Of a DNA stretch of 64,000 nucleotides, positions 14,685 through 33,706 are shown piece by piece. Numbering within the stretch: the stretch's first letter is position 1; every line of letters starts with the position of its first letter. The translations under genes and the position numbers were made by a program. The stretch lies in the NCBI RefSeq assembly GCF_003991155.1, contig NZ_CP031293.1. One strand, given 5' to 3'. The DNA comes from Escherichia coli (lineage in GTDB: Bacteria > Pseudomonadota > Gammaproteobacteria > Enterobacterales > Enterobacteriaceae). The notes under the pieces are model-generated. The model was not told where the DNA came from and ran no database searches. It worked only from the letters and a program-made list of their open reading frames with translations.

Positions 14685-16418
14685 ATGGAAATCATATTAC
14701 CAAAAAACACCTTATATGACAGAGAGCAAAATGTCTTTTTTGAAAAGGTTACGGCCTTAATTGGCGAAAATGGTGCTGGTAAGTCCTCGATTTTACAATC
14801 CGTATTTATTAACTGTTTAACAAAAAAATATCTACCAGAAACAAAGGTTGTTTGTTTTTCTTCTGGACAAAATGAGAAATACTCAACGTACTTCTCTGAT
14901 TATCTTTCTCATGAAAGGCAAGCAAATAGAGGTCTTAACTTAGATTGTTGTTATTACGATAAATCATGGTCAAAGTTACTAATATTCATATCCACAATTT
15001 GTAAATCAAATGGTCTTGTTAGAAATTTTTTATGTGAGAAAGGCTATATTGATGTATCAGATGATAAAAATGATGATATATCAAGCAAGCTTACATTGAC
15101 GGTCCGAGTAAATTCGGCTTACGTTAATCGAGTAAAAATGGCATTAGCACAAGAAGAACAAGGTATTGAAAATACTTTAAGGTATTCAGCTTATCATAGG
15201 ACTTTAGAAAGTTTCATTAATAATATTGTTAATGCTGATTATGATTTCGAGTCTCCACTTGAAGCTCAAGAGATCTTGCTAACTCATTCAAATTTTTTCA
15301 ATCCATCATTTGAGGAAGCAGAAGATTCCTTTTTTGATCCTATCATAACATTTTTCACTCAAGCAGCAGATAATGATTACTTTATAATAAAACCATCATT
15401 ACAGCTAGAGTTTAAAAATAATATCGAACTGAATGATATTAGTGATGGGGAATATCAAGTACTCTTTTTATACTCTCTGCTTGATATTTTTGATAGTCCT
15501 AATACTTTATTCTTATTAGATGAGATAGATTCCCATTTACATTACAAGAATATTGAGCTCTTATGGCATCGACTACATAGTATTAATGGTTATGCGATAA
15601 CAACCACCCATCTATTAGACTCAATTACAGCTACTGATAATGATTTTAAAAACTTAAAGATTGTTGATAAAGGAAAAATAAAAGAAGATGATAAAATAAA
15701 AACTATAATAGAACGTTTATCTGTCTTGACAAGAATATCAGACGTACAGTTCGAAGTGTGTCGTAAACTAGAAAACATAGTATTGATGGATGATTATAAT
15801 GATTGGACTATTTTTTATGCCTTAGCAAAGAAAAAAGGACTTGATGTATCAAAGTTAGATGGCCTCCATGCAATAAAACAGTCCTCTGGTTACGATAATT
15901 TAAATCAAGAGTTCGCAAAACCAAAAATAGAGTGGATTAATTCGCTTTTAAATGTAAATACTGATAAAAAAGTCAAAAGAATATTCATGATCTGCGACAA
16001 AGATGAGGCTCCAATTACCTATCAGAAAGATGGAGTTCAAGTCAATGGAAGTGAATATTCAAAACATATAGCGAAGTTAGAAAATAAAAACAAAAATAAA
16101 ATATATCTCCTTGCATGGAAAAGAAGAGAAATAAAAAACTACTTACTATCTTATACGGCATTGTCCCATCATGGATTTATCGAGCAAATAAACAATGGAG
16201 ATCTGCCAGCTAACAGTTATTTAAAAGAAAACGATCCTGGAGATAATTCAGCAATTAGCCGGCTTAACGTAAAACATTGCATCACAAAAATAATTGATTC
16301 TGATGGTATAGGATTAGATATATCAAAACTTTACTCATATATAGAACTTATACCACCTGCTGAGATCAGTGAAGATATAGTGAACATGTACAATTTTTTG
16401 GTGGAGAAATTAAAATGA
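14685..16418 (+). CDS. ABC-type (OLD/AAA_21-like) P-loop ATPase, 577 aa, with possible C-terminal TOPRIM/DUF4435-like nuclease region
   Basis: Walker A LIGENGAGKSS, signature-like ISDGEYQ, Walker B LFLLDEIDSHLH; C-terminal acidic motifs FMICDKDE and WKRREIKNYLL; very AT-rich; stop overlaps next gene start (ATGA at 16415-16418). Confidence 0.7.
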   Translation: MEIILPKNTLYDREQNVFFEKVTALIGENGAGKSSILQSVFINCLTKKYLPETKVVCFSSGQNEKYSTYFSDYLSHERQANRGLNLDCCYYDKSWSKLLIFISTICKSNGLVRNFLCEKGYIDVSDDKNDDISSKLTLTVRVNSAYVNRVKMALAQEEQGIENTLRYSAYHRTLESFINNIVNADYDFESPLEAQEILLTHSNFFNPSFEEAEDSFFDPIITFFTQAADNDYFIIKPSLQLEFKNNIELNDISDGEYQVLFLYSLLDIFDSPNTLFLLDEIDSHLHYKNIELLWHRLHSINGYAITTTHLLDSITATDNDFKNLKIVDKGKIKEDDKIKTIIERLSVLTRISDVQFEVCRKLENIVLMDDYNDWTIFYALAKKKGLDVSKLDGLHAIKQSSGYDNLNQEFAKPKIEWINSLLNVNTDKKVKRIFMICDKDEAPITYQKDGVQVNGSEYSKHIAKLENKNKNKIYLLAWKRREIKNYLLSYTALSHHGFIEQINNGDLPANSYLKENDPGDNSAISRLNVKHCITKIIDSDGIGLDISKLYSYIELIPPAEISEDIVNMYNFLVEKLK

Positions 16419-18322
16419 ACACCTCTTTATTTGAAGATCTACTTACACTAATCAAGAAAAAGAGTTCGATAAGGAATACAGAACAAGCAGTAGAGTTAAT
16501 TTCATTATTTATTTTTTTACATTATATAAAATTATATCTTTATGAAAATGATAAAAGATTTTCAGATATAAAAAACATATCAAGCAACAACATTAATGAA
16601 ATTAAATATTATTATCAGCAACTATATGAAAGTTTTATTTTCTCGATAGATATAAAAAATATAAACCACGACATGCTTGAAAAGCTCAGGAGTAAGATAG
16701 GTTTTTTAATTAATAACATCAATGACCATGAAATAATTAAATATATAGATTATTCTATTTCGCAGATACATTCACTTACAGAATTCTATCAATATGCAAA
16801 TTCTTATCAATCTTTAATTCTTAGGATGGTTAATGAATCGGGTCGTTCAGGTGAATATGTTACTCCATCTGCTTTAGTTCAGCTCATGGTTGAAATGTTA
16901 TCACCTACAGATGGCACATCAATCTACGACCCCGCATGTGGAACTGGGGGTTTATTAATAGAGTCAGCACGATATATTAAAGGCAACAGTTTAAACAAAA
17001 ACTTAAATTTAAATTATTCCCTTATTGGTAATGACACATCATCATTTGCCTGTCTAATCTCAATTGTTAACCTTTTAATCAATAAAGAATTTAATTTTGA
17101 AATAATACTAAAAGATAGCTTAGATATAAATTATAAGAATACAAAATATGACTTTATTTTAACTAACCCACCATTTGGGAAAAAGAGCGGTTGGGATAAT
17201 ATTCATATTGACACACATTATAAAGGACCTAATCTAGACTATTACTTCCTGGAGCATGTTATTGACTCTCTCGCTGTTAATGGCAAAGCAGCCATAATAT
17301 TACCAGAGCGTTTTTTATATGATGTGAGTAAAGAGTGCATCACTCTTAAAGATAAGATCTTCCAAAATTATAATTTAGATTGTATTTTATCTATACCGTC
17401 AGGTGCATTGCTTCCTTACACTGCAGTAAAATTATGTATTCTTTTTATAAGTAATCCTGGCCCAACAGATAGAATATTTTTCTACAATTTAAATAATGGT
17501 GAAAAATACTCACGTACAAATATTATAAAATTCGATGATTTTATAGATTTTTTAGAGTCAGCAAAAAATAGAACAATAACTGAACACTCCTGGATTATCA
17601 ATATTAGTGATACACCTTCATCTTATAACTTACTCTTAAAAGATAAAGAGCGAAACTCATATGAGTTTCTTAGTGATTCTATAGTTAACATTGAACAGAC
17701 AATACGTAATAATGAATTATTACTAACAGAGTTGTCTTTATTAAGAGAAAAAATAGCAATCTTAGAGTCAACAATAAAAAATCATTCGCATGAATATGAA
17801 TTTGAGAGACTTAAAGTTGGAAATATTGCAATAGTAAAATCCGGAAATTTATTACAAAAAAACAGGCTGTTACCCACTGGACCAATTCCTGTATACGGTG
17901 GAAATGGAGTTATTGGATATAACAATGAGGCAATGGTAAATGGTGAAAATATTATTATTGGTAAGGTCGGAGCTCTTTGCGGAAACGTTCGGTATGTTCA
18001 AGGTGATATTTGGGTGACAAATAACTCATTAATTATTAAGAATTATTTACCAAATAAAGTTTTAACACCCTACCTTGCAAAGTTATTATCTACTTTAAAC
18101 TTAAGAAAGCTCGCCGTTGGTACCGCTCAACAATATTTAACCACAACACAAATAAAAAATGTAGAAATTAGCATTCCACCTTTAACGACCCAGCATAAAT
18201 TAAATATGTGGCTTGATGAGTTAGATAATACCCTTGAACAATATAATAAGCTCATTGAAAAAATAATGAATGATAAGCGAGAACTTAAAGAGAATTTGTA
18301 TAAAGGTCTTTTAATAGAATAG
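16415..18322 (+). CDS. N6-adenine DNA methyltransferase (HsdM-like) fused to a single type I specificity (HsdS-like) target-recognition domain, 635 aa
   Basis: Motif I YDPACGTGGLL and motif IV LTNPPFGKK; C-terminal ~180 aa resemble an HsdS TRD plus conserved helix (...GKVGALCGNVRYVQGDIWVTNNSLIIK...); translationally coupled to the upstream ATPase. Confidence 0.75.
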   Translation: MNTSLFEDLLTLIKKKSSIRNTEQAVELISLFIFLHYIKLYLYENDKRFSDIKNISSNNINEIKYYYQQLYESFIFSIDIKNINHDMLEKLRSKIGFLINNINDHEIIKYIDYSISQIHSLTEFYQYANSYQSLILRMVNESGRSGEYVTPSALVQLMVEMLSPTDGTSIYDPACGTGGLLIESARYIKGNSLNKNLNLNYSLIGNDTSSFACLISIVNLLINKEFNFEIILKDSLDINYKNTKYDFILTNPPFGKKSGWDNIHIDTHYKGPNLDYYFLEHVIDSLAVNGKAAIILPERFLYDVSKECITLKDKIFQNYNLDCILSIPSGALLPYTAVKLCILFISNPGPTDRIFFYNLNNGEKYSRTNIIKFDDFIDFLESAKNRTITEHSWIINISDTPSSYNLLLKDKERNSYEFLSDSIVNIEQTIRNNELLLTELSLLREKIAILESTIKNHSHEYEFERLKVGNIAIVKSGNLLQKNRLLPTGPIPVYGGNGVIGYNNEAMVNGENIIIGKVGALCGNVRYVQGDIWVTNNSLIIKNYLPNKVLTPYLAKLLSTLNLRKLAVGTAQQYLTTTQIKNVEISIPPLTTQHKLNMWLDELDNTLEQYNKLIEKIMNDKRELKENLYKGLLIE

Positions 18323-18330
18323 ATCACAAT

Positions 18331-18357
18331 AGCAGGGTGTCCATAAAACACCCTGCT
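18331..18357. terminator. hairpin between convergent genes (AGCAGGGTG-loop-CACCCTGCT), possible bidirectional terminator
   Basis: Perfect 9-bp stem seen in sequence between the + strand MTase gene and the - strand hsdR; no clear U-tract. Confidence 0.4.
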
Positions 18358-18402
18358 ACTGGTTGCAAGTAAGTTGCAATATCTGTACTGCTGAAGCTAC
18401 TA

Positions 18403-21400
18403 TTAATAATGCTCCTCAATATACCCATACGCCTTCTGGAACAACTCTTTATCTTTCCCTAGTCCAAACTGGGCCAAGGTCAGTAAAAGCGCCTTTTGGA
18501 TTTCGCGCGGGCCACTGTTGGAATTTTGCCAGCCATCAAAGCGGGTAGCTTTCACAATTTTATCAATTTGCTCTACAACATCACCGATTAACTTAGGGGT
18601 AGTTTCCGGACGTGTTTCGAGGAAAAGCTTAGTCAACGCCTGTTTATTATCAGCTTCAGTTACTGGGCGCTCGCCCGTTTCGCGCTCGGCTTGAACGGTA
18701 TCTTTCGCTGCATCCAACAGGCCTTTCAACCAGTCAATGGCCTTGATAACACCAGCTTCATAGTCCTGACGCAGTTTTTCAAGGCGCTCGCCCAATGCCA
18801 CAAATTTAGGATCATGACTGCCGCGCAAACGTCCCATAAGATCAATCTCCAGGCGTTTGGCACGTTGTTCCTGCTCTTTAGCGGTCAGGGTAAAAATAGC
18901 GTGCTCGTCCATAACCAACTCGTCAATATCATCGCGAATACGATTGATATCAGTATGCTCATGGATCATCTTGATTGTTTCGGGGCCAAGGGCAGCCCAA
19001 ACAAGCGCACCTGTCTGCCCTACCGGACGCACCGATTCATAAATTTGCGCCAGCCATTTATAGTCCTGACGATAAGAGGTCAAAAAAGGATCTGGGTTGA
19101 TAGCTGACCATAACTTGGATAACACACCAAAGCTGGCAGCGAATTCATCGCGTTTCTCGTTGGTCGGCAGGCATTCCTGCGCGGCCATAATACCTTCAAA
19201 ACCAGCTATGGACCGATCCACACCAGGGAAGAAGGACAAACATTTATTCAGTTGTAACGGCAATAGCTCTTTAAATGCCTCAATTCCCTCTACAACTCCT
19301 TCAATTTCTTCAGGGTTATAGGCCAGAGCGGTACGCAGATTTTCGAAAACGCCGAGGTAGTCGATAATTAATCCCATGTCCTTGCGTACAGTATCGGTTT
19401 CGTACAACCGGTTGGTTCGGCACATGGCCTGAAGAAGAGTATGATCGCGTAGAGGCTTATCGAGGTACATGCAGTAGCAAATCGGGGCATCAAAACCCGT
19501 AAGCAGCTTGGCGGTTACGATAATAAGCTGTAATGGATGTTCAGGATCTTTAAAGCATTCAATCAGATCCTTTTGCACCTGTTCTTCGGCATCAATGTGC
19601 TGCCAGCGTTCAAAATCGACTTGTTTGACTGGCAGCTCCAACTCATCATGCCATTTAAGCCAATCCTTGTTGAGCTTGTCTTTTTTGCCACCCTCTTCAA
19701 CTTTAACCGGAGCCTGGTCAACGTTCATAACCACTTCAACCGCATCAAAACCAAGCTTTTCACCGAGCAAATAATACATCTGCACACAGGCTTCGCGATC
19801 GTATACCACAACCATGCCTTTCATCTTTTTCGGCATAACATGGTTGGTAAAATGCTCAGCAATATCATTACTCACCGCAGCCATACGCCTAGGGGATTTC
19901 AGCATGATTGCCAGCTTGCCTGCACGCCTGGACAATGCTGCTTTTTCTTCTTCATCCAGGTTGTTTTCGGTAGCCAGTTGCTCGAACTCTTCATTGATGG
20001 CATCACGATCCACTCGGAGTTCAGCCAGCCGAGGTTCGAACTTCACCGGGTTAGTTGCGCCATCCCGGATCGACTGCTTATAGCTATAGCGGCTCATATA
20101 GCGACCTGGATCTTCTTCGGCACCGAACAATTTGAACGTATTACGATCAATGCCAGAAATCGGAGTACCAGTCAGGCCATAGAAGTGGGCATTGGGCAAC
20201 GCCCAGCGCATTTTCTCGCCTAATCCCCCTTCCTGTGTACGGTGAGCTTCGTCAACCAACACAATGATATTGTCCCGGTTGTTCAGGCCATTAGGGTTGC
20301 TATCGTCAATTTCGATATCTTTAAATTTAAAGATGGTGGTGATTAAAATGCCACGGCTGTCTTGTTCTATGTATTCACCCAACTTTTTGCAGCTTTGCAC
20401 TTTAATCAGATTCTTAACGTCGGCTCCGCCAAAGGTCTCGTTAATTTGGCTGTCCAGATCTCGCCGGTCCACAACGATAAGTACCGTCGGGTTTTTTAAC
20501 GCATTATCGGCACGTAGCATTTTGGCGGCGTAAAGCATCAACAAGGATTTACCCGATCCCTGGAAATGCCAAATAAGACCTTTTTTTGGATAGCCTCTGC
20601 GAACACGCTCAACAATTTGTTTTGCAGCTTCAAATTGCGGATAACGCGGCAGGATTTTAACGCGTTTAGGTGGAGTATTTTTGCCCGTTTTGACGGTTGA
20701 AAATAATGCAAAAGATTCAAGTAACTGCAATAAGGTTTGTGGATTTAACAAACTCTCACAGCTGTTGAGTACCGATGCTAATCCCGGCAGAATTTCATCA
20801 CGAAGCTCAGTATTATGCCAGGGCCCCCAGTCTTTAACTCTGGCATTAATGGCACCATAGGCAAAGGTTTTTCCTTCGCTGGCAAAGCACAGCAAGTTAG
20901 GTACAAAGAAAGATTCAACATTTTTCCAGTAGTACTTTTTGCCACCCATGAAATCGGCAGCACCGTCTTGCCAGGTCACGCTGGGGCGTGTTGCGGTTTT
21001 AACTTCGCCCACTACTAGCGGTATGCCGTTCACATAAAGAACAATATCAAAATAGACTTCAGTGGCCGCGATATAGCGAACCTGCTGCGCCACCACAAAG
21101 TGGTTGTTCTCTATATTGTCAAAATCAATCAGATTGATGGTGATATGGTCGCCATTCTTACCAAAAGGCAAGGTTTTGTCGGCCATCAACCATTCCTGGA
21201 AGTTTTCATTGGCCTTTACCAAGCCGGTATGGCGGGCTTCTAAAACCACTCCTCGCAGTTTGTAAATGACCTCATCGGCATAGTCAGGCTGTCTGCCGAT
21301 ATCAGGGTTTAACGAACAAAGCGCGTCTTTTAGCCACTCATCAACGAAGATATCCTGCGCTTGTTTAGGCAGGTTTTCACCGTGGCAGTAAGTCCACTTG

Positions 21401-21465
21401 ACTCCGCTTAAACCTTTTAAACGGTCGATAATTCCATTTTCTGTGACGGTTTGTTCGTTAAACAA
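18403..21465 (-). CDS. hsdR: type I restriction enzyme R subunit (HsdR), 1020 aa
   Basis: N-terminal PD-(D/E)xK-like DIVLYVNGIPLVVGEVK; helicase motif I HFQGSGKS and DEAH box IVLVDEAHRTQ; directly follows hsdS. Confidence 0.9.
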   Translation of the reverse strand: MFNEQTVTENGIIDRLKGLSGVKWTYCHGENLPKQAQDIFVDEWLKDALCSLNPDIGRQPDYADEVIYKLRGVVLEARHTGLVKANENFQEWLMADKTLPFGKNGDHITINLIDFDNIENNHFVVAQQVRYIAATEVYFDIVLYVNGIPLVVGEVKTATRPSVTWQDGAADFMGGKKYYWKNVESFFVPNLLCFASEGKTFAYGAINARVKDWGPWHNTELRDEILPGLASVLNSCESLLNPQTLLQLLESFALFSTVKTGKNTPPKRVKILPRYPQFEAAKQIVERVRRGYPKKGLIWHFQGSGKSLLMLYAAKMLRADNALKNPTVLIVVDRRDLDSQINETFGGADVKNLIKVQSCKKLGEYIEQDSRGILITTIFKFKDIEIDDSNPNGLNNRDNIIVLVDEAHRTQEGGLGEKMRWALPNAHFYGLTGTPISGIDRNTFKLFGAEEDPGRYMSRYSYKQSIRDGATNPVKFEPRLAELRVDRDAINEEFEQLATENNLDEEEKAALSRRAGKLAIMLKSPRRMAAVSNDIAEHFTNHVMPKKMKGMVVVYDREACVQMYYLLGEKLGFDAVEVVMNVDQAPVKVEEGGKKDKLNKDWLKWHDELELPVKQVDFERWQHIDAEEQVQKDLIECFKDPEHPLQLIIVTAKLLTGFDAPICYCMYLDKPLRDHTLLQAMCRTNRLYETDTVRKDMGLIIDYLGVFENLRTALAYNPEEIEGVVEGIEAFKELLPLQLNKCLSFFPGVDRSIAGFEGIMAAQECLPTNEKRDEFAASFGVLSKLWSAINPDPFLTSYRQDYKWLAQIYESVRPVGQTGALVWAALGPETIKMIHEHTDINRIRDDIDELVMDEHAIFTLTAKEQEQRAKRLEIDLMGRLRGSHDPKFVALGERLEKLRQDYEAGVIKAIDWLKGLLDAAKDTVQAERETGERPVTEADNKQALTKLFLETRPETTPKLIGDVVEQIDKIVKATRFDGWQNSNSGPREIQKALLLTLAQFGLGKDKELFQKAYGYIEEHY

Positions 21466-21466
21466 T

Positions 21467-22633
21467 TTATTGTCCCCTCAGAAGAATATTCAAATAACTG
21501 GACTTGAGTTTACGAATTTTTTGAAGCCTTGATTTAGCTTCTCTATAACTGTTTTCGGCTAAATGTAATATATCCTTATATTTCCCAAGCTCTCTTGATG
21601 GTGGTATAACCATCTTCTGAGAATGTACATCGGCATCATTAACAGCCGGGAAACTTGTACCAACTGCCAAATTGGTTAATGAATAAGTGAATTGCTTCGA
21701 CAAAGTGAAATAATAAATAAAATCGGACAAATCATTTTTTGCCCTTAGAACAGTAAAACCTGTTGATGCTATTGAATCATTCAATATTTCAGACACATAA
21801 AACGTAGCTCTATGATTGGGTCTAACAGTGCTAACAACAATATCTTTTTCCTTAAGAATACGCCGAGCTCGGCTGGGGGCTTCAGCGAAATGGTATTCTT
21901 TAGGAGTATCGACAAAACCAGGAAAAGTCACTGAAGATATATCTATATACCTAATCAGCTTATTTTTATTGGCATCATTACTTAACAAGTCAAAATTAAT
22001 ATTTGATACATCCTTCAATCTAACTTTGTTATATCCAAATGGCAGTTTTTCTTTTCGATCAAATGTAGTCAACCGATCAATTAATCTTTGAAATAAATTT
22101 AATGCAGACCTTTCAGTCTCATTTGCACAATGTAATACTTGTTCGATTTTTTTTAAAGAATTTAAAAAATCAACTTGCAGATCCATTTCAGGAATAATAA
22201 ATTCCTGCTGACTTAAAACTTTCCATTTTATCGTTGGAGACAATGACCCCTCCGAAATTGCTACTGCACGATTCATGAAAGTATCAGACTGCATAATAAA
22301 GGGTAAAAACTCAGGTATTACAGTATTTGAATTTGCCTCCAGAACCATGGCATGAGCCGAACAGATACAATCCCAATCTGCTACCGCGACTTTACGTTGA
22401 TAAGCACGACGCTTACCAAAAATAATCTGGCCTTTTTTCACTAAAAGCTTCTGCCCTTCAACGTCACTGGGTGTACCATGACGTTTGATTTTCAGGCTGT
22501 CAGGGTCTAAATGCTCCAAACCGACATAAATTTCAAGGTCTGTCTCGCTCGGTTCCACTCGTTTAGAGATATGTTTAGCGATATCGCCAAACTTCACCAT
22601 TTGCCAGCCTTCAGGTAATTGCTGTTCTGTCAT
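21467..22633 (-). CDS. hsdS: type I restriction-modification specificity subunit (HsdS), two TRDs
   Basis: 388-aa protein with two variable regions separated by conserved spacer; second TRD coding region markedly AT-rich; abuts hsdM and hsdR. Confidence 0.85.
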   Translation of the reverse strand: MTEQQLPEGWQMVKFGDIAKHISKRVEPSETDLEIYVGLEHLDPDSLKIKRHGTPSDVEGQKLLVKKGQIIFGKRRAYQRKVAVADWDCICSAHAMVLEANSNTVIPEFLPFIMQSDTFMNRAVAISEGSLSPTIKWKVLSQQEFIIPEMDLQVDFLNSLKKIEQVLHCANETERSALNLFQRLIDRLTTFDRKEKLPFGYNKVRLKDVSNINFDLLSNDANKNKLIRYIDISSVTFPGFVDTPKEYHFAEAPSRARRILKEKDIVVSTVRPNHRATFYVSEILNDSIASTGFTVLRAKNDLSDFIYYFTLSKQFTYSLTNLAVGTSFPAVNDADVHSQKMVIPPSRELGKYKDILHLAENSYREAKSRLQKIRKLKSSYLNILLRGQ

Positions 22634-24133
22634 TTACTGCTCCACCTTGCTTTCAACGTTATATCCAAGCTCTGCAAGGCTCTGGAATAATTTATTAGTT
22701 TGCTTTTTCAACTGAGTACGGCTTACTTTCCACGCTTCAATCGCATGTTCAATATTATGTACTTCAGCGTTGTTTTGTGCTTGCACATACAGTGGAATTG
22801 AAAGGTTATAAAGGTTTTCTTTAATAGCTTCAATATTCACTAAAGAGGTTATATCGTTTTTTTTCTCCGGATTAAAATAAGCCTCGCATAATACCTCCAA
22901 ATCCTCATCGGATAAGCGACTATGAGCGCGTTCACGGGTAACATGCTCAACCCCGTTGATAAATAACACTTTATTTTTGCGTTCGGCAGGTTTATTGCAA
23001 TTAAGCACCACCACACAAGATTCCATCGGCGAGTTATAAAACAGATTTGGTCCCAAACCAATCACCGCTTCAATAATGTCCGATTCAATCACCTGTTTAC
23101 GAATGGCCTGCTCAGAATCACGGAACAGCACACCGTGTGGCCAGAGCATAGCAGCACGACCGGTATCGGGTTTTAAACTTTTAATTATATGGGTATAAAA
23201 AGCATAATCAGCGCAGCCCTGCGGTGGGACACCATAAAGATTTCGACCATACGGATCAGCAGCAAACTTGTCACGATTCCATTTTTTAATGGAGTACGGT
23301 GGGTTGGCAAAAATCACATCAAACTGCTTGAGCCGATCGTTTTCAATAAACTTTGGCTCAGCCAAAGTATCACCACGCAGCACATCAAACTCTTCAATAT
23401 CGTGCAGGAACATATTCATACGGGCGATTGCGGATGTCAGCAGGTTCACTTCCTGACCATAAAGGTGCACAGAGCGCCACTCTTCCCCTCTAGCACGCAG
23501 ATCCATCACTGCATTTAGCAACATCCCACCTGTGCCACACGTTGGATCATAGGCGGTTTCACCCGGTTTTAAGCCCATAATGCGCGTCATTAAATGCACG
23601 ACTGTTCGGTTGGTGTAGAACTCTGCTGCCGTATGACCGGAATCATCAGCGAACTTTTTAATCAGGTATTCGTAGGCCTCACCAAGATCATCCTGAGCGA
23701 CAGATTTAATGCCTAGCGGAATTTGACTGAAATGTTCAATCAGATCAGCCAGCAGATGATCGGGCAGGCGCTCTTTATTGGTCCACTGCGCATCACCGAA
23801 GACGCCATGTAAACGCGGATTATTGGCTTCAATTAGTCGAAGCGCATTCTGGATCGCTTCACCAATGTTTTTACTGGTATTGCGTACCTTTTCCCAACTG
23901 GCTTCAGAGGGAATGTTGAAACGGTGAAACATCGGCATGGCGGCATATTCAGCATCACCTTCATGGAGTTCCAGCGCTTCGTTATATTCTTCCAGATAGA
24001 CATCTGACAGGCGTTTGTAAAACAGCAACGGGAAGATATACTGCTTGTAGTCTGATGCGTCAATTTGGCCACGAAGAAATTCGGCGGCTCCCCAGAGCAG
24101 CTCTTCCAGCTTTTTATTACTCATAGTACTCAT
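22634..24133 (-). CDS. hsdM: type I N6-adenine methyltransferase subunit, paralogue B (499 aa)
   Basis: Motif I YDPTCGTGGMLL, motif IV FANPPYSIKKW; start overlaps stop of upstream hsdM paralogue (24130-24133). Confidence 0.85.
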   Translation of the reverse strand: MSTMSNKKLEELLWGAAEFLRGQIDASDYKQYIFPLLFYKRLSDVYLEEYNEALELHEGDAEYAAMPMFHRFNIPSEASWEKVRNTSKNIGEAIQNALRLIEANNPRLHGVFGDAQWTNKERLPDHLLADLIEHFSQIPLGIKSVAQDDLGEAYEYLIKKFADDSGHTAAEFYTNRTVVHLMTRIMGLKPGETAYDPTCGTGGMLLNAVMDLRARGEEWRSVHLYGQEVNLLTSAIARMNMFLHDIEEFDVLRGDTLAEPKFIENDRLKQFDVIFANPPYSIKKWNRDKFAADPYGRNLYGVPPQGCADYAFYTHIIKSLKPDTGRAAMLWPHGVLFRDSEQAIRKQVIESDIIEAVIGLGPNLFYNSPMESCVVVLNCNKPAERKNKVLFINGVEHVTRERAHSRLSDEDLEVLCEAYFNPEKKNDITSLVNIEAIKENLYNLSIPLYVQAQNNAEVHNIEHAIEAWKVSRTQLKKQTNKLFQSLAELGYNVESKVEQ

Positions 24134-25629
24134 ACCTCGAAACCTTCTTTGATAAGCAGGGCCTCCAGCTCCTCTTCTGCTTTTTCCAGCTCAGCCAGCT
24201 TCCGTTGAAAATCTTTGAGCGCCTCTTCCACAGTGATGGTTTCTTCTTCGAGTGGCTTTTGCACATAACGAGCAATATTTAGATTGAAGTCATTTTCTTC
24301 AATCTCCTTCAGAGAAACCCAGCGTGCAACGCCTTCGATTTCTTTTGCATCTGGCCCTTGTTGCGCCTGGTCATGATAGATTTGGTATATTTCATCGGCC
24401 TGCTTGTTGGACAGCGTATTCTGCGCACGTCCCTTGGTATAGATTTCTTCAGCATTGATGATCAATACATGATCTTTATGCGCGGCCGGACGTGATTTAC
24501 GCAGCACCAAAATACACGCAGGAATCCCAGTCCCATAGAACAGGTTGGAAGCAACACCAATAATCGCCACAATGCGATTCTCTTGCAGTAATTTGGTTCG
24601 AATTGCCCCCTCTGCGCCGCCACGAAACAGCACACCATGAGGTAATACGACTGCCATACGTCCATTGTCGTTAAGTGAAGCAAACATATGCTGCACCCAG
24701 GCAAAATCACCATTTGTTTTAGGCGCCAGGCCATATTGCTTACGGCCATAGGGATCGTTCGACCACAGATCGTATCCCCATTCTTTTAAGCTAAATGGTG
24801 GGTTGGCAACAACGCAGTCAAAGGTTTCTAAACGATCGCTTTTTAAAAATTTAGGTTCGCGTAAAGTATCCCCTCGGACAATATCGAAATCTTCCTGTCC
24901 ATGCAGGAACAGATTCATACGCGCAATAGCTTCCGTCGTTAAGTTCTTTTCCTGACCCTTGATTTTTAGTAAACGCGGATCACCACCATTTTCTTTTACA
25001 TGGTGGATGGTCTCAAGCAGCATACCACCGGTACCACAGGCGGGATCGTAGACACTCTCACCGGCTTTTGGATCAAGAATGTTAACCATCAAACGAACGA
25101 TAGTTCGTGGGGTATAGAACTCACCGGCTTTCTTATTGGCTTTGTCTGCAAAGCGTTTGATCAGATACTCGTATGCGCGCCCCATATCATCGTCACGGAC
25201 ACTAGAAACGCCAAGGTTCACCTTATTGAAGTGATTGAGTAACGTAGCCAGTAACTCATCAGAAAGGCGTTCTTTATTGGTCCAGCTGGCATCGCCAAAA
25301 ATGCCATGCAGTTTAGGGTTTGCCAGTTCTATACCACGGAAGGACTCTTTTAAAGCCTGACCGATGTCCTTGGTCTCAGCGAAAACATCGCGCCAGTGGC
25401 AATTTTCAGGTATCTGAATACGGTGAAACATCTTGCCCTTGGCAAGCTCTGCATCCCCAATGCTCTCCATCGCATCGGCAAATTCTTCGTCATACACGTC
25501 ACAAATGCGCTTGAAGAACAGGATGGGGAAAATGTACGTTTTGTAATCTGACGCATCAATGGGCCCTGTAATAATATGGGCTGCATGCCATAGATGGGCC
25601 TCGAGATCTTTTAGGTTAATCAGTGTCAT
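24130..25629 (-). CDS. hsdM: type I N6-adenine methyltransferase subunit, paralogue A (500 aa)
   Basis: ORF 24130..25731 trimmed to MTLINLKDLEAHLW; motif I YDPACGTGGMLL, motif IV VANPPFSLKEW; homologous over full length to paralogue B. Confidence 0.85.
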   Translation of the reverse strand: MTLINLKDLEAHLWHAAHIITGPIDASDYKTYIFPILFFKRICDVYDEEFADAMESIGDAELAKGKMFHRIQIPENCHWRDVFAETKDIGQALKESFRGIELANPKLHGIFGDASWTNKERLSDELLATLLNHFNKVNLGVSSVRDDDMGRAYEYLIKRFADKANKKAGEFYTPRTIVRLMVNILDPKAGESVYDPACGTGGMLLETIHHVKENGGDPRLLKIKGQEKNLTTEAIARMNLFLHGQEDFDIVRGDTLREPKFLKSDRLETFDCVVANPPFSLKEWGYDLWSNDPYGRKQYGLAPKTNGDFAWVQHMFASLNDNGRMAVVLPHGVLFRGGAEGAIRTKLLQENRIVAIIGVASNLFYGTGIPACILVLRKSRPAAHKDHVLIINAEEIYTKGRAQNTLSNKQADEIYQIYHDQAQQGPDAKEIEGVARWVSLKEIEENDFNLNIARYVQKPLEEETITVEEALKDFQRKLAELEKAEEELEALLIKEGFEV

Positions 25630-25872
25630 TGTTGTCTCTTTTCGATCCTGCAGTGCTTGAACTCTCAGCAACTCATGGATTTCACAGTAAAAAAGCAAGT
25701 AAAGCGATTCCACAACCACCTGAGCGTTCAATATGTATGACGCCTTTACCCAAGTTGCTTAAATCAAGGAAATTGCCAGAGATAATACTCTGGCATCAGA
25801 ATGATACCAAGTTGAAGGGCTGATTTCCGCATCAATACCTTGTGGTAATAGGGGATTACTCTTTTACCCTTA

Positions 25873-26910
25873 TTGGCGCAAAATGGCGGCATTTCCTCAT
25901 TTCTCCATCGGAGCATCTTACGCGCTATAACCACTCTCGTTTTTTCCTATTCCCATGCAGATGAAGCACTACGCAATGAACTTGAGAAGCATCTCTCCCC
26001 GCTGAAGCGAACCGGGAAGATCACAACATGGCACGATCGCCGCATCGTTCCTGGTCAGGAGTTCGAACGTCAGATCGACCACTATTTTTCGCAAGCAGAT
26101 ATCATCCTGATCCTGATCAGCAGTGACTTTATTGCTTCTGATTACTGCTATCAGGTAGAGATGAAAAACGCACTGGAACGGCATAACCGGGGCGAGGCAG
26201 TGGTCATTCCGGTAATTTTAAGAGACTGTGCATGGCATCAGTTAGAATTCGGCAGCATTATGGCGGCGACTATCGACGGTAAACCCATCACTAAGTTTGC
26301 CACCCACGATGAAGGCTACGTTCAGGTCGTCGAGGCTGTCTCGCGTGCCATTGCCCGGATGGAAGCCAAAAAACCACAGCAAACCATACATATCCCTTCA
26401 CCGGCTCCGGCGAATCCGATCTTTCAGGGAGTAGATTCCGTTTTTACACCGCGTTCAAGCAACCTTACTCTACCCAAGAAATTTACCGATCTGGATAAAG
26501 ATCGTGCCAGACGTGAGGGCTTTGAATATGTTGCCCGCTATTTTGAAAATTCGTTAGATGAACTCAAAAAGCGCCACCCCGGATTAGATATCGATTTTAA
26601 TCGGCTTGATACAGATTCATTCACCTGTGCCGTGTATATCAATGGCAGTAAGGTCGGCCAATGTGGCATCTGGCGAGGCAATCAACATCATGGAATGGGA
26701 GATATCTGTTATAGCCAGGATAATGTTGTTCGAAACAGTATTAACGAAACTCTAAGCCTTGCTGATAACGGCCAGACTCTTGGTTTTCGTGCTCTGATGG
26801 GAGGCTTCAGTCGAGGAACTTCACGAGACGAACTATTGACCAATGAAGGTATGTCGGAACATCTCTGGGAAATGTTCTTCGGGCTAATCAAGCAAAGAAT
26901 GTCCCGATAA
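25873..26910 (+). CDS. TIR-domain protein with uncharacterised ~180-aa C-terminal domain
   Basis: TIR-like N-terminus (VFSYSHADE..., WHDRRIVPGQEF, ADIILILISSDFIASDYCYQVEM with a Glu at the expected catalytic position); only in-frame start is TTG at 25873 and no clear Shine-Dalgarno, so the N-terminus is uncertain. Confidence 0.65.
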   Translation: MAQNGGISSFLHRSILRAITTLVFSYSHADEALRNELEKHLSPLKRTGKITTWHDRRIVPGQEFERQIDHYFSQADIILILISSDFIASDYCYQVEMKNALERHNRGEAVVIPVILRDCAWHQLEFGSIMAATIDGKPITKFATHDEGYVQVVEAVSRAIARMEAKKPQQTIHIPSPAPANPIFQGVDSVFTPRSSNLTLPKKFTDLDKDRARREGFEYVARYFENSLDELKKRHPGLDIDFNRLDTDSFTCAVYINGSKVGQCGIWRGNQHHGMGDICYSQDNVVRNSINETLSLADNGQTLGFRALMGGFSRGTSRDELLTNEGMSEHLWEMFFGLIKQRMSR

Positions 26911-27094: not shown

Positions 27095-28150
27095 TCATGC
27101 TGGCAAATACGTTTTCTTAAGCGGCACCAATAGCTTAGTCTCTATATCCACTTGCTCATAGTTTTCAACTAACGCGCGTACCAAATCATCCAGCGTCCAT
27201 AGCGTCAACGGGATTGTAGAACGATCGGCCTCATAACGCGCATCCTTGCTGAATCCGCCGGTACTGACATACAGCCCGCGATCGTCTTTATGGCGGCCAC
27301 CGATAAAGCTACGGATTTGCTGGCTGCTCATCTGTTCCCGCCGGTGCTTCACCTCAACAATAATGCGCGGATTTTCAAACCCAAATCCGTCAGGCGAAGC
27401 AATGATGTCTTTCCCACGGTCAGCACCCGCAGGCGATACCTGAGTTTTATATCCCATGCTGCGTAACACGCCAGCGACCAGATTCTGCATCTCATCCCAG
27501 TCGAGACGGTTGATACGATCCTTGATGCCTTCAAAAGCGATCATTTCCATGTCGCGCAGAGGATTAGAAACGACCTCATCCTCTTCACCTGAAACAGGTA
27601 CTTCCGGCACGATATCTGAGACAGGCTTATTGCCCTGCACTAATTCATTCACAGCAAAATCAGGCACCTGAAAAACTGTCAGCGTTGAACCAAGGGTGTT
27701 TCTAGTTGCATCACTCAGACTATCGCGCTTAATCTCTTCCGCATTCCACTTCACTTTACGGGCGATGCCCATGCCATCTTCAAGCCACTCGGCATGAAAC
27801 TCAAAATCTGACGCTATTTTCCCTATTAAATAGGTCCGATTAGAAGGTGAATAAGTGATAGCCCAGTCGCCTTTCTGCATTTCATTCACAAAGCGCCAGA
27901 CCTGAGAAGCTCCAGAACGAACTGTGCCTGGCTTAGTCTGTGGCTCAAGCTCCTGATACCGGGTAAACAACTGCTCTCTTGAGCATCCAGGTTTCACATA
28001 GGGAGCGAGCTGCGACCAACCAATTGCAACAACCTGTTTGTCTCTGAAGTCGTCGTACAATTTTCCGCCATCACCGCGGATCATCCACATCTTAGTCGCC
28101 ACAATAATTCCTTCTGAAAATACTTCATCGTTATACCGGGACGTGATCAT
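27095..28150 (-). CDS. Mrr-family (PD-(D/E)xK) restriction endonuclease with N-terminal PUA/EVE-like putative modified-base reader; probable type IV enzyme
   Basis: C-terminal domain alignable with E. coli Mrr catalytic region (DIIASPDGFG...IIVEVKHRR...LYVSTGGFS); start set at ATG 28150 preceded by AAGGTGG; N-terminal RFVNEMQKGDWAITYS resembles EVE-domain core. Confidence 0.7.
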   Translation of the reverse strand: MITSRYNDEVFSEGIIVATKMWMIRGDGGKLYDDFRDKQVVAIGWSQLAPYVKPGCSREQLFTRYQELEPQTKPGTVRSGASQVWRFVNEMQKGDWAITYSPSNRTYLIGKIASDFEFHAEWLEDGMGIARKVKWNAEEIKRDSLSDATRNTLGSTLTVFQVPDFAVNELVQGNKPVSDIVPEVPVSGEEDEVVSNPLRDMEMIAFEGIKDRINRLDWDEMQNLVAGVLRSMGYKTQVSPAGADRGKDIIASPDGFGFENPRIIVEVKHRREQMSSQQIRSFIGGRHKDDRGLYVSTGGFSKDARYEADRSTIPLTLWTLDDLVRALVENYEQVDIETKLLVPLKKTYLPA

Positions 28151-28212
28151 TCCATTCAGCCACCTTATCCAGGGGAAAAACACCGATAAGATGGCTAATC
28201 AAAATGTCTGTT

Positions 28213-31200
28213 CTAAACCTGACGCCTATCAAGACTATTATAAATAGCCTCAATCTCACCTTTCAGGTTATCACCAGAGTAAACCATCGATGTATCGTAT
28301 CGTTCATATCGCGCTTCCCGTGTCGCACTAAACCAGTTGAACGATCCCACGCATAGCAAACCATCATCACCAATAACAATTTTGCTATGAACACGGTTTA
28401 CCAGCTTTGTAGCAATACCCAGCGCATTCAGTTTCTCCAGCGCCGCTTTAAGGTTCTGCTGCTTCTCTTTTCGCTTCTCAAAATCTTTATGTTCAGTGTT
28501 GTAGCTTCTGTCAGTGACTATCGTGACGTTAATACCACGTGAACACGCCGCAATCATGGAATCAAGAAAACCCGTTTGCTCCAGCTTTTGCCAGGTCAGC
28601 CATGGAGAAACTATCGTGATGTGTTTATCGGTATTTTCAAACGTCTGATTCAGGAAGTTATCATGCTGCTCCACACCATGAAGTGTGTAGATTTTGGTCT
28701 CGGAAGTTTTTAAATCCTTACGCTCTTTATAATCAAAAGAGAGCGCATTCTTCTCGAACTCAAAGAGATATTTTGCCAGCAATCCTCGCGGAGATGAGGG
28801 AGCCTGGATCTCAAACAGATCCATATCGCCGAAGACCAGGAAGCTATCCTTCGCACGGGAGACTGCAACATTCAGCATGCTGTTATCGCTATCAATAAAC
28901 CCGCCGTCTTCATGTTTTGAATAGACTGGCGAGAATATAACAATCGCTCTTTCCGCTCCCTGAAGAGAGTGCACGGTGCCCACTGTGAGCGACTTTTCAT
29001 TCGCGCCCGTACTGATACCTTGTTTACCCAGCGCCTGTTTTATAGTGGATACCTGCGCGCTAAAAGGCGTCACGATACCGACAACTTCATGAAGCGATTT
29101 GCCGTAATGCGCTTCAATATTTTGCTGGTTCTCTGCCAACCAGGCCGCTATCGTTTCAGCCTCAAGCAAATTATATCTACTTCCACTACTTGCCTGCTCT
29201 CCTTTACCATCAATATGGAGATAACCCATTGCGGGCATTAAATTGCTCTCTTCACGCCCTCTTTTAGGCAACAACTTACCGTGATAGCAGAGCGTATTAC
29301 AGTATCCAATAATATTATCGAAGCACCGGCGGTGTTCATATAGGTACATACCACGAGCCAGTTCGGGATCATATTGATAGCGCGAAGCAAACTGCGCTAT
29401 TTTCATAACGCTGCCAGATGCGGCACTTTTACCAAGGTCTGCGATTGCCGTATATTTCTCGGTAATCTCTTCTTGCGTACTGCCAGACAGAATTTTTTCC
29501 GCCAGCATGTTACCGACATCAATCGCGGGAGCAATACTCCATATTGGCGGGATCTGCTCCGTATCGCCAATCACTAATGCCTTCTTAGCTAATGCAAACG
29601 AGGCAGCAGCCACTTCAGGAAGCACCTGCCCGGCTTCATCGACAATGAGTAAATCGGCAAAATCATACAAATAACTTTTCTCGAATTTACGTTGTCCTTT
29701 GTGCTCACTTATCTGCATATTGCCGGGCAGCATATAGCATGTCATCACCACACATGGAGTGAGTTTCATTCGACGTTGCCAACGGGCGGTTACCCCTTTA
29801 GCGCCTTGTTTCTTCTTCTCTTCCTGCAGATCATCAATTCTGGCCATATCCATCAGCCAACGACCTTCCCAGTAGTGAGTCGTCAGTAAAAATGCAGGGA
29901 AGCGAATCTGCGTATCAGCCAGTTCATCGGCCTGTGAGAAGCTCAGTTCCTCGTCGCCCTCATACCCTAAATCAAATGCCAGCCTCTGCCACTCCTGAAC
30001 CGCCTGCTGTTCTTTAAGAACGATTTCATGGGCGGAGTCAATCTGCTGCCGGTATGTTGTTTGCTCGCGCTCAGCGGAATTGAGCAGCCCATCAATATTA
30101 CGTTCGATAGTTTCAGGATCAGACCACTGATTTCCTGCAATCAGCGCGCCTAATTTATCTTCGAGAAACAGCTGTATTTGGTACTGTCGCTTATTGCGAA
30201 CCGCCGGGAGCCAGGAAAATAATGAATAGATCAGTGATTCACCGGCGCGATATTTTTTCCATTCCGTTTTAGCACTCTTCAGTAGAGTGACTTTTTGTTC
30301 TTGTCCGGAAAGTAATTTATTTAAATTATCGAGATATTGCTCAATATCATTAGCAATAAGCTCACGCGCAGCCCGAATCTGGCTTAACATTTGCCATGTT
30401 GCGTTCAGTCTTATCAGTTGCTCGGATTTTGCTGCCAACTGACCATGCAGGAGTTCAATGATCTTTTCAGGGGATGAACACTCTTTTTCAGGAAAGGCTG
30501 CCTTAGCCTTCTCCAGATAAAACAGCAGTGCATCCTCTACATACTCTTTTGACTCAACCTGGGTGAAGAAATCTTCAGTTTGATATTTTTTGGCTGCCTC
30601 AGCTTTACGAGTGCTTGAGGGAAAATAAGCGCCGAAGCTTTTCAGCTCTGGCAACCATCGTCCGGCCATCGCACCTGAACCTTGCGAAAAGTCTTTCCCG
30701 AATGCCTCAATAATGTTCGTTACAGCCTGGTTATTCGTTGAAGTCGCGATAATAACCGGAGGCTCAGATTTTTCGAGAGCTGCTCTGGCCCACTGCGTGG
30801 CGATGATAGAAAGCACCAGCGTGGTTTTTCCGGTTCCCGGAGGTCCATTAACAGCAAGGATATCGCCATGTCTTGCATCCAGAAAATGGCTTAAGGCATC
30901 GCGCTGAGCCTTTGCCAGCGGAAACTTATCTCCGGAGTGTCCAAGCCTGTCGCTGAATTTTGCTCCTGGGGCCAGCAAAGACTCTGCAGCATGAACCTCT
31001 CGCGAGGCGAAGCGATTGAAGAGCGGCACATCCTTCTTGCAAACAAGCAGGTGATCATAAAGAGAAAGGATATGGAAACTGGCACCGCCAGATTGCGCCG
31101 TTTTAACAATATAACCGTGCTCAGCGAGTACATATTGCTCAGGATTTTTAATCCAGTCGCCGGCAACATTCTTCAGCAGCCTCTCTGAATCATCCAGATA

Positions 31201-31728
31201 TTGACGCCACTCCTGCTGCAAGGCTGCATATCGTGCTTCCCGTTCTTCATCCGTTTCGGCAGTCTTATCAATGCTGTCATCAAAGTTGATAGAGAACGAG
31301 GTATGGATTGTCTTGTATTTGTCATACTGCCCAATATCACCAATCGAAAATGCTCCTTTTGGCAAAGGTTCAAGCAGGTCTCTGGGAATGGAGGTCGCTG
31401 GCGTCGGATATAAAAAACCCTCACGGCTTAGCAAGGCTGGCGTCACTAGCGGGGTAACAATATCAGGTGCGCCTGCGGAACGGTCCTTACCATGCTGCAG
31501 TAACCGAAAATAAACTTTTGGGCGCAAGACGACATCGACCGTTTCGACATCGTCTTTTTCTCCCTCAAAAAATTTACTGACAATCGCTTCGTCAAGACGT
31601 CCCGCCGCTATCCCATGCCAGTGAGTGAAATTTTTGGCGTCTTTCCGTTCAAAACTGCCCTTTCCTGACTCAGCATCTGCAAGCGAGTTGCGCCAGTATG
31701 AGGCAAACCCTAAAGCATTTTCATCCAT
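28213..31728 (-). CDS. SF1 (Upf1/DNA2-like) helicase fused to C-terminal PLD-family nuclease, 1171 aa; architecture resembles type II Mokosh
   Basis: Walker [13 protein letters not shown], Walker [10 protein letters not shown], helicase motifs [16 protein letters not shown] and [12 protein letters not shown]-terminal HKD motif [20 protein letters not shown]. Confidence 0.75.
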
Positions 31729-33621: not shown

Positions 33622-33706
33622 TGGTGCCGAAGGCCGGACTCGAACCGGCACGTATTTCTACGGTTGATTTTGAATCAACTGCGTCTACCGATTTCGCCAC
33701 TTCGGC
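33622..33706 (-). tRNA. leuX: tRNA-Leu (CAA anticodon), 85 nt
   Basis: Reverse complement folds as cloverleaf: acceptor GCCGAAG.../...CTTCGGCACCA, anticodon loop with CAA, long variable arm; adjacent to ahr as in K-12. Confidence 0.95.

Follow-up and report, generated by a model that had tools for sequence, protein, structure and literature searches.

The 64,000-nucleotide stretch of DNA analyzed here (hereafter the window) most probably carries, at an estimated probability of about 0.93, a complete Type I restriction-modification (R-M) operon of the PacII kind with two methyltransferases, hsdM1-hsdM2-hsdS-hsdR, which sits on an E. coli chromosome within the leuX defence island and specifies an m4C/m6A M1M2S enzyme together with HsdR. 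By comparison with characterized relatives, we infer an m4C/m6A chemistry, a CCC half-site, an N5 or N6 spacer, and restriction activity in this strain, the predicted site being C(m4C)C-N5/6-(m6A half-site). The two-hsdM arrangement is already known from a subclass described in 2016, and the locus is a rediscovery of that arrangement rather than a new kind of enzyme.

Canonical Type I enzymes rely on a single hsdM, whose product forms a homodimeric M2S methyltransferase that deposits m6A on both strands. The m4C/m6A two-methyltransferase Type I subclass was defined by Morgan et al. 2016 (PMC5100572). Within its M1M2S enzymes, M1 (NPPF motif) generates m6A and M2 (NPPY motif) generates m4C, the genes are ordered M1, M2, S, R with M1 upstream, and the M1 and M2 proteins of one system are 45-55% identical and 62-73% similar, each sorting with its own family (PMC5100572). 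The active-site loop reads N-S-P-M-E in M2 vs. G-T-A-I-P in M1, with the NSPME form proposed to narrow the pocket, and the S subunit combines an N-terminal target recognition domain (TRD1) acting as the conserved reader of the cytosine half-site with a variable TRD2 (PMC5100572). M1 and S alone leave partial m6A activity in PacII-type systems, and lone M2-type gene systems are not known (PMC5100572). In the ten published systems, the two methylated bases are spaced 7 bp from each other. The prototype, PacII from Pseudomonas alcaligenes NEB 585, recognizes C(m4C)C-N5-RTTGY (PMC5100572), and structures of its M1M2S-DNA heterotrimer are available (7vru and 7vs4; Zhu et al. 2022, PMC9613975).

The ORF map of the window places four consecutive open reading frames on the minus strand. 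The first, hsdM1 (also M(A); 24130-25629), encodes 499 amino acids with NPPF at residue 276 and the loop GTGIP at residues 366-370. It is followed by hsdM2 (also M(B); 22634-24133), which encodes 499 amino acids, or 496 from an ATG at 24124, with NPPY at residue 277 and the loop NSPME at residues 367-371, and then by hsdS (21467-22633; 388 amino acids; PADLOC Specificity_I profile PDLC03103, 672 bits) and hsdR (18403-21465; 1020 amino acids; TTG start), which encodes the restriction subunit with translocase and nuclease functions. The mechanical ORF of hsdM1 extends to a TTG at 25731, and the length of 499 amino acids is counted from the ATG, from which the N-terminus is identical to that of M1.PacII (PDB 7vru_A). 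For hsdR, the PGAP annotation agrees with the CDS of 3063 nucleotides. The gene order proposed from the sequence-only reading, i.e., hsdM(A)-hsdM(B)-hsdS-hsdR on the minus strand, was thus borne out. The overlapping or abutting junctions that it had described can also be read directly: hsdM1 and hsdM2 share an ATGA overlap (GAG GTA TGA / ATG AGT), the ATG of hsdS directly follows the TAA stop of hsdM2, and one base separates the TAA stop of hsdS from the TTG start of hsdR. One caveat applies to the first of these junctions, as the RefSeq/PGAP start for hsdM2 is the second ATG (window position 24124, MSNKK...), where Shine-Dalgarno spacing is better, and with this start the two M genes are separated by a 5-nucleotide gap instead of overlapping. 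A promoter and terminator scan of positions 18100-26000 yielded 18 sites vs. 14.6 ± 4.5 expected from shuffled sequence, i.e., not above chance and without bearing on where the operon begins or ends, so that transcription as an operon is predicted from gene packing.

All four proteins matched Type I family models for M, S, and R subunits, with PADLOC MTase_I and Specificity_I profiles reaching up to ~670 bits. HsdR is full length and scores well above the family cutoff (TIGR00348, 477.9 bits; cutoff 284.55), and the two M proteins fall just under the cutoff of the TIGR00497 hsdM equivalog (229 and 228 bits; cutoff 242.75). The RefSeq proteins of the locus are WP_061092747.1 (M1), WP_197665280.1 (M2), WP_072275279.1 (S), and WP_061092745.1 (R), and the RefSeq names for both M genes are generic (subunit M or class I SAM-dependent DNA methyltransferase). 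Aligned with each other by BLASTP, M1 and M2 are 46% identical with 66% positives over all 499 residues (E = 3e-162), in line with the earlier description of two full-length homologues sharing about half of their residues. Motifs I and IV are intact in both, as had also been proposed, with GTGG at residue 199/200 and NPPF or NPPY at 276 or 277, and all catalytic residues are kept, so that neither paralogue carries inactivating substitutions. The locus accordingly departs from the canonical situation in which one hsdM supplies both protomers, and encodes two distinct, conserved M genes.

Comparison with PacII assigned each M protein to its own side of the published pair. M1 is 84.8% identical to M1.PacII (7vru_A; 980 bits, ungapped over residues 1-499) vs. 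46.1% to M2.PacII, and M2 is 88.8% identical to M2.PacII (7vru_B; 1012 bits) vs. 43.9% to M1.PacII. Among the PacII residues validated by mutagenesis or structure, 41 of 43 are kept (12/12 in M1, 20/22 in M2, and 9/9 in TRD1 of S). These include the cytosine cage of M2 (F172, P279, Y280, and F365), as well as M2 R29 and its partner M1 E170 (PacII numbering; R29 corresponds to R21 in the window M2). The two substitutions, R11 to T and D19 to E, map to the N-terminal helix of M2 that contacts TRD2 or DNA. The NSPME loop of M2 is the published M2 loop, and GTGIP in M1 is one conservative change away from GTAIP. The locus therefore displays the defining features of the subclass, i.e., gene order, NPPF/NPPY pair, range of M1/M2 identity, loops, and a conserved TRD1 next to a variable TRD2. 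The suggestion that two distinct M genes reflect a heteromeric methyltransferase or sub-functionalization is supported, since this class has been shown experimentally to form M1M2S (PMC5100572, PMC9613975) and its PacII subunits share 85-89% identity with the M proteins of the window. Absent from the sequence-only reading were the prior description of the subclass, its division of labor between adenine and cytosine, and the use of NPPF/NPPY as the published diagnostic of that division.

The specificity subunit is a composite of a PacII-like and an unrelated half. Its N-terminal 193 amino acids match S.PacII (7vru_C, E = 2.5e-89), and the C-terminal half has no match there. TRD1 (22199-22633, minus strand; approximately residues 1-145), predicted to read 5'-CCC-3' from its likeness to S.PacII, shares 88% identity with the equivalent CCC-reading domain of that protein and keeps the base contacts R75, R76, and H94, the backbone contacts Y78, Q79, and K81, and the M2-interface residues N121, E128, and K136 (residue roles from PMC9613975). 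For TRD2 (21599-22051, minus strand; approximately residues 195-345, bounds derived from the PacII domain map), the putative reader of the adenine half-site, no similarity to TRD2 of S.PacII was found, and its target is different from the RTTGY of PacII. Its best solved relatives are the TRD1 domains of 3okg and 5ybb (E ~7e-22); these were rejected as guides to specificity, being too distant. The G+C content of the TRD2 stretch is low (0.38-0.40) vs. ~0.46 in the M genes.

Based on PacII homology, M1 would bind S first, via its C-terminal tail, and M2 would then be recruited to yield an asymmetric M1M2S heterotrimer clamping a bipartite DNA site. In this complex, TRD1 would read 5'-CCC-3' and offer the central C to M2 for conversion to N4-methylcytosine, and TRD2 would read the adenine half-site on the other strand and offer its adenine to M1 for conversion to N6-methyladenine. 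With HsdR attached, unmethylated sites would trigger ATP-driven translocation and cleavage, as for other Type I enzymes.

The operon is uncommon yet consistently placed in E. coli. A search of 5426 complete E. coli genomes with its DNA matched 109-111 of them (~110), always in the leuX defence island; the two M genes lie under the match in every match listed, and both were present in the four loci inspected (4/4). Strains 2016C-3878, AR Bank #0349, and FDAARGOS_1268 are among those that carry an identical copy of the locus. This mosaic island at a tRNA-Leu varies in G+C content and holds several further defence genes. A megablast search of PLSDB with the operon returned no match, and a plasmid origin was rejected on this basis and because all E. 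coli copies are chromosomal. The M(NPPF)-M(NPPY)-S-R order was also found on plasmids of Exiguobacterium, Mycobacterium, and Streptomyces (three loci; Bacillota and Actinomycetota), so that both genes are kept at homologous loci elsewhere as well as across E. coli alleles. In a neighbor-joining tree, the window M2 groups in one clade with the downstream NPPY genes from these three genera. In Rhizobium, a more distant relative is an M-S-R system whose only M gene is of the NPPF type.

Within E. coli, different parts of the operon have distinct histories. BLASTN alignment to the window is lost over 21465-22650 in strain RM14516 and over 21465-22955 in strain DG341; the S proteins of these strains are only 29-33% identical to the window S, while M1 and R are 99.6-99.8% identical. 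Hence, hsdS and the 3' end of hsdM2 (21465-22955) are replaced as a cassette in other E. coli strains, the C-terminal tail of M2 being exchanged along with S, while M1 and R show almost no change. Purifying selection acts strongly on both M genes. For M1, dN/dS vs. other E. coli alleles is 0.06-0.07 at a dS of 0.01-0.03, corresponding to only 5-12 nucleotide differences, whereas M2 has a dN/dS of 0.01-0.02 at a dS of ~0.15, synonymous changes being numerous and replacements nearly absent; for hsdR, dN/dS between E. coli alleles is 0.02-0.05. The sharp contrast in dS between M1 and M2 points to recombination inside the operon. An invariant M1 (99.6-99.8%) apparently assembles with three S proteins with very different coiled-coil regions which, if true, bears on how far the four-helix bundle tolerates partner swapping. 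The TRD1 domains of RM14516 and DG341 also differ strongly from the CCC reader, H94 being lost in one and the R75/R76 motif in the other. We tentatively raise the possibility, which we hold to be somewhat doubtful, that these domains could recognize m4C half-sites other than the three known ones (CCC, GCC, and TCY), and that the window S, which joins a CCC-type TRD1 to a TRD2 with no relation to that of PacII, may specify an uncatalogued bipartite m4C/m6A sequence.

These data allow other explanations of the paired M genes to be weighed. The operon could be of the canonical Type I kind with an hsdM that was duplicated and is redundant, in which case one copy would be decaying or non-functional and the active enzyme a homodimeric M2S. 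Such a reading draws on the fact that canonical Type I enzymes need one M gene, and on the partial m6A activity of M1 with S (PMC5100572), which would make M2 dispensable for some adenine methylation, but it is very improbable given that both ORFs are full length with motifs I and IV intact, that M2 retains 20 of its 22 functional residues and evolves at a dN/dS of 0.01-0.02 with a dS of ~0.15, and that the pair is kept across phyla. An inactive or decaying paralogue was rejected on the same grounds (intact motifs, 41/43 validated residues, and dN/dS of 0.01-0.07). We consider just as improbable a chance juxtaposition, in which M1 would be left over from a partly deleted second Type I system beside an intact M2-S-R. 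The same arrangement of an upstream NPPF gene overlapping or abutting a downstream NPPY gene occurs in Pseudomonas (PacII), Exiguobacterium, Mycobacterium, and Streptomyces, M1 travels with R at ~99.7% identity across E. coli alleles, and no lone M2-type systems are known (PMC5100572). In the loci examined, close homologues of M2-S-R had an M1-type gene beside them. These observations outweigh the mosaic nature of the tRNA-Leu island, with its other defence genes and variable G+C content, and the recombination within the operon indicated by the dS of M1 (0.01-0.03) vs. M2 (~0.15), both of which speak for such an accident. A fusion of two unrelated systems was likewise rejected, since synteny holds between phyla as well as among E. 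coli alleles.

The remaining alternative accepts the heteromeric M1M2S enzyme and questions its chemistry: both subunits could methylate adenine, or M2 could have another target, the m4C assignment of PacII being non-transferable. NPPY motifs are common among m6A methyltransferases generally, the base specificity of this allele rests on homology, and R11 and D19 of M2.PacII are substituted here. However, M2 is 88.8% identical to M2.PacII, with the cytosine cage complete and the NSPME loop retained, and TRD1 is 88% identical to the CCC reader with all three base contacts; the strand that a CCC half-site offers to M2 contains no adenine. This alternative is therefore also very unlikely, if by a hair less so than the other two, and an m4C/m6A enzyme of the PacII type remains the preferred reading.

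Placed next to characterized enzymes, the locus resembles PacII in its M1-M2-S-R order, NPPF/NPPY motifs, NSPME loop, CCC contacts, and M1-M2 interface residues. It differs from PacII in three respects: S and R of PacII are flanked by its two M genes (genome description in PMC5100572), whereas the four genes are contiguous here; the unrelated TRD2 implies a different adenine half-site and a different full recognition sequence; and the host is E. coli, with the operon in the leuX island. Sen483I from Salmonella enterica SL483 (CCC-N5-RTAG; Table 1 of PMC5100572) belongs to the same subclass, and shares with the window locus the CCC type of m4C half-site and an enterobacterial host. If the window TRD2 were the same as that of Sen483I, RTAG would be expected as the adenine half-site. 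A literature search on Sen483I, and on PacII with E. coli, retrieved no paper characterizing the E. coli enzyme of this locus or describing m4C/m6A methylation by it. The resemblance to EcoR124 (7bst) and EcoKI (2y7c) extends to the M, S, and R subunit types, a bipartite site, an S subunit with two TRDs, and an M2S-like architecture, with M1 matching the HsdM of EcoR124 at 197 bits and that of EcoKI at 93 bits. Unlike the window locus, with two M genes at 46% identity and a predicted heterodimer with split base specificity, these two enzymes use one M gene, a homodimer, and m6A on both strands.

Taken together, the presence of this operon predicts that E. coli strains with a copy in the leuX island would carry N4-methylcytosine at CCC-containing bipartite sites. 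Such m4C would bear on the interpretation of methylomes and on transformation barriers in the carrier lineages, as well as on gene annotation, given the generic RefSeq names of both M genes. The E. coli allele series, in which M1 and R are constant while S and the M2 tail are swapped, may in turn offer a panel for studies of specificity and assembly in this subclass.

The four genes of the operon lie on the minus strand in the order M(A)-M(B)-S-R, and, as the sequence-only reading had described, every junction is overlapping or abutting. hsdM1 (M(A), 24130-25629) encodes 499 aa from its ATG, hsdM2 (M(B), 22634-24133) also 499 aa, hsdS (21467-22633) 388 aa, and hsdR (18403-21465) 1020 aa from a TTG start, with all four proteins matching Type I subunit models in profile searches. 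Read from the sequence, ATGA forms the overlap of hsdM1 with hsdM2, the hsdS ATG directly follows the hsdM2 stop (TAA), and the hsdR TTG lies 1 base from the hsdS stop. The hsdM2 start itself is ambiguous: the ATG at 24133 overlaps the hsdM1 stop but has a GAGG only 1 nt upstream, while the second ATG, nine bases downstream (24124), which is the RefSeq (PGAP) start at an identical E. coli locus, has a GAGG ~10 nt upstream and would leave a gap of 5 nt between the two genes instead of an overlap. A promoter and terminator scan of the operon region gave counts not above chance.

The two M proteins are homologous over their full length yet diverged (BLASTP, 46% identity, 66% positives, E = 3e-162), in agreement with an earlier by-eye estimate of about half, and both retain intact motifs I and IV. 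Motif I is GTGG in both; for motif IV, M(A) has NPPF and M(B) has NPPY, and the active-site loop is GTGIP (366-370) in M(A) and NSPME (367-371) in M(B). Searching full texts for paired NPPF and NPPY motifs retrieved Morgan et al. 2016, who described a class of systems in which M1, the upstream gene (NPPF), makes m6A and M2, the downstream gene adjoining S (NPPY), makes m4C (PMC5100572). Within one such system, M1 and M2 share 45-55% identity, the active-site loop of M2 is N-S-P-M-E and the corresponding loop of M1 G-T-A-I-P, and the N-terminal target-recognition domain of S (TRD1) reads the cytosine half-site and is highly conserved between systems, while the C-terminal one (TRD2) is variable (PMC5100572). 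More than 300 of these systems were in REBASE by 2016, one of them from Salmonella (Sen483I) (PMC5100572), and the M1M2S-DNA structure of the prototype, PacII, was solved in 2022 (PDB 7vru, 7vs4; Zhu et al. 2022, PMC9613975). The class is thus already known, and the window operon has every one of its sequence-level defining features.

Comparison with PacII assigned each M protein to a distinct subunit. M(A) aligned ungapped and end to end with M1.PacII (7vru_A; 980 bits, 84.8% identity) but was only 46.1% identical to M2.PacII, whereas M(B) matched M2.PacII (7vru_B; 1012 bits, 88.8% identity) and was only 43.9% identical to M1.PacII. The suggestion of a heteromeric, sub-functionalised methyltransferase made by the sequence-only reading was therefore correct. 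Residues 1-150 of S are 88% identical to TRD1 of S.PacII, whereas the C-terminal half has no match in S.PacII, its nearest solved relatives among PDB sequences being 3okg and 5ybb (E ~7e-22). We then compared individual residues, all validated by structure or mutagenesis in Zhu et al. (PMC9613975). M1 keeps 12 of 12 (D25, R252, E170, F171, N276 to F279, S280, R336, T367, R401), and TRD1 of S keeps 9 of 9, among them the residues contacting the CCC bases (R75, R76, and H94). M2 keeps 20 of 22, including the cytosine cage (PacII F180, P287, Y288, F373), motif IV N285, R410, and R29, a residue that in PacII bonds to E170 of M1 and is stacked against the target adenine (PMC9613975). The two substitutions in M2 (T for R11, E for D19) fall within the N-terminal helix, and a search for inactivating substitutions in either paralogue found none at catalytic positions.

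Homologous loci outside E. coli also keep both M genes. A tblastn search of plasmids with M(B) yielded three records at ~54% identity with two matching places each (Exiguobacterium, Mycobacterium, and Streptomyces), all annotated as M-M-S-R with overlapping genes, and ten records at ~40-44% identity with one place each; in a Rhizobium relative, the system is M-S-R with just one M gene. Among the aligned M genes, NPPF occurs in every upstream gene, and NPPY, NSPME, and FY(T/S)NR in every downstream gene. A neighbour-joining tree with the single-M relative as root groups the downstream genes in a single clade. Conservation of the two-gene architecture across three phyla rules out chance juxtaposition. 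A DNA search of plasmids with the operon returned no match.

Within E. coli, the operon DNA matched 109-111 of 5426 complete genomes, always on the chromosome, with 40 operon records at ≥99% identity and two M genes under every match among those listed. Strains RM14516 and DG341 have the same defence island but other S alleles: M1 (99.6-99.8%) and R (99.7%) are nearly identical to the window proteins, and S shares only 29-33% identity with its window counterpart. The DNA block that could not be aligned (21465-22650 for RM14516, 21465-22955 for DG341) takes in hsdS together with the 3' end of hsdM2; the latter codes for the M2 C-terminal tail, which in the PacII structure lies packed against the coiled coil of S (PMC9613975). 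Between E. coli alleles, dN/dS was 0.06-0.07 for M1 (dS 0.012-0.031, based on only 5-12 nucleotide differences), 0.01-0.02 for M2 codons 1-300 (dS 0.15-0.17), and 0.02-0.05 for R (dS 0.026-0.072). Such strongly purifying selection indicates that both M paralogues are maintained, and the uneven dS along the operon shows recombination within it, centred on S. M1 is near-invariant though paired with S proteins of very different coiled-coil regions, while the M2 tail swaps with S. The DG341 M2 allele reads NSPMP instead of NSPME. The operon copy of P19_598 (NZ_CP067241.1) is identical except that an IS3-family transposase interrupts it, and the feature name 'subunit M N-terminal ...' suggests a split in one of its hsdM genes. 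A more divergent variant (~91% identical) in Z1323HEC0009, also at leuX, directly adjoins a tyrosine integrase and leuX (10398-12419 in L008, the label for this strain), lacks the further defence genes found in the window island, and has a 231-nt HTH gene overlapping the hsdM1 start that may be a controller-like regulator.

These observations bear on other explanations for two M genes. That one is a decaying duplicate is contradicted by the intact motifs, the retained functional residues, and the low dN/dS, and its derivation from the remnant of a second system is contradicted by synteny across phyla and by the way M1 and R stay together among E. coli alleles. It is unlikely that a heteromeric enzyme would methylate adenine with both of its subunits, since M(B) is 89% identical to the m4C subunit and TRD1 is, by sequence, a CCC reader.

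The operon sits in a defence island (~14.6-33.6 kb, G+C mosaic from 0.30 to 0.49) between nanS and leuX, the window order being fim-nanCMS, island, and tRNA-Leu(CAA) (leuX, 33622-33706, minus strand), which forms the island boundary. In E. coli K-12 this position is occupied by KpLE2. Immediately beside hsdR lies a translationally overlapping gene pair (14685-18322, plus strand, G+C ~30%), which other E. coli alleles also keep beside the operon. Its products are a 577-aa ABC/AAA_21-type ATPase (weak AriA, mad3, PtuA, and AbiLi-like matches) and a 635-aa fusion of an N6-adenine methylase with a single S-type TRD (MTase_I PDLC03021, 212 bits; Specificity_I, 95 bits). No recognised PADLOC system covered this pair, a possible defence module of methylase plus ATPase in which no nuclease is obvious. 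Divergent from hsdM1 is a TIR-domain gene (25873-26910, plus strand; ThsB PDLC00420, 508 bits), annotated at 651 nt in RM14516 and DG341 versus 984-1038 nt; no ThsA match was found among the neighbouring genes scanned. Further along (27095-31728, minus strand) are two additional defence genes of the island, for an Mrr-like restriction endonuclease (candidate system PDC-S02, 276 bits) and a 1171-aa helicase-plus-PLD protein matching the Mokosh protein MkoC over its full length (1684 bits).

Judged on sequence, the window encodes a close orthologue of the PacII prototype in which TRD2 has been swapped, and the methylation chemistry, motif, and restriction activity of this enzyme can be predicted by homology. 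M1 would dock first on S via its C-terminal tail and M2 be recruited next, giving a heterotrimer in which TRD1 would read CCC and hand the central C to M2 for m4C, while TRD2 would read an adenine-containing half-site and hand it to M1 for m6A; HsdR would add restriction of the classical Type I kind. A distance of 7 bp separates the methylated positions in the ten published systems, which have an N5 or N6 spacer (PMC5100572), and the length of S (388 aa here, 383 for S.PacII) leads us to expect a similar spacer. Dozens of RefSeq genomes already carry identical, annotated copies of the operon, and our literature search found no paper characterising this E. coli enzyme. Within this known class, the exact recognition sequences of the window S allele and its E. 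coli sister alleles might still be uncatalogued.
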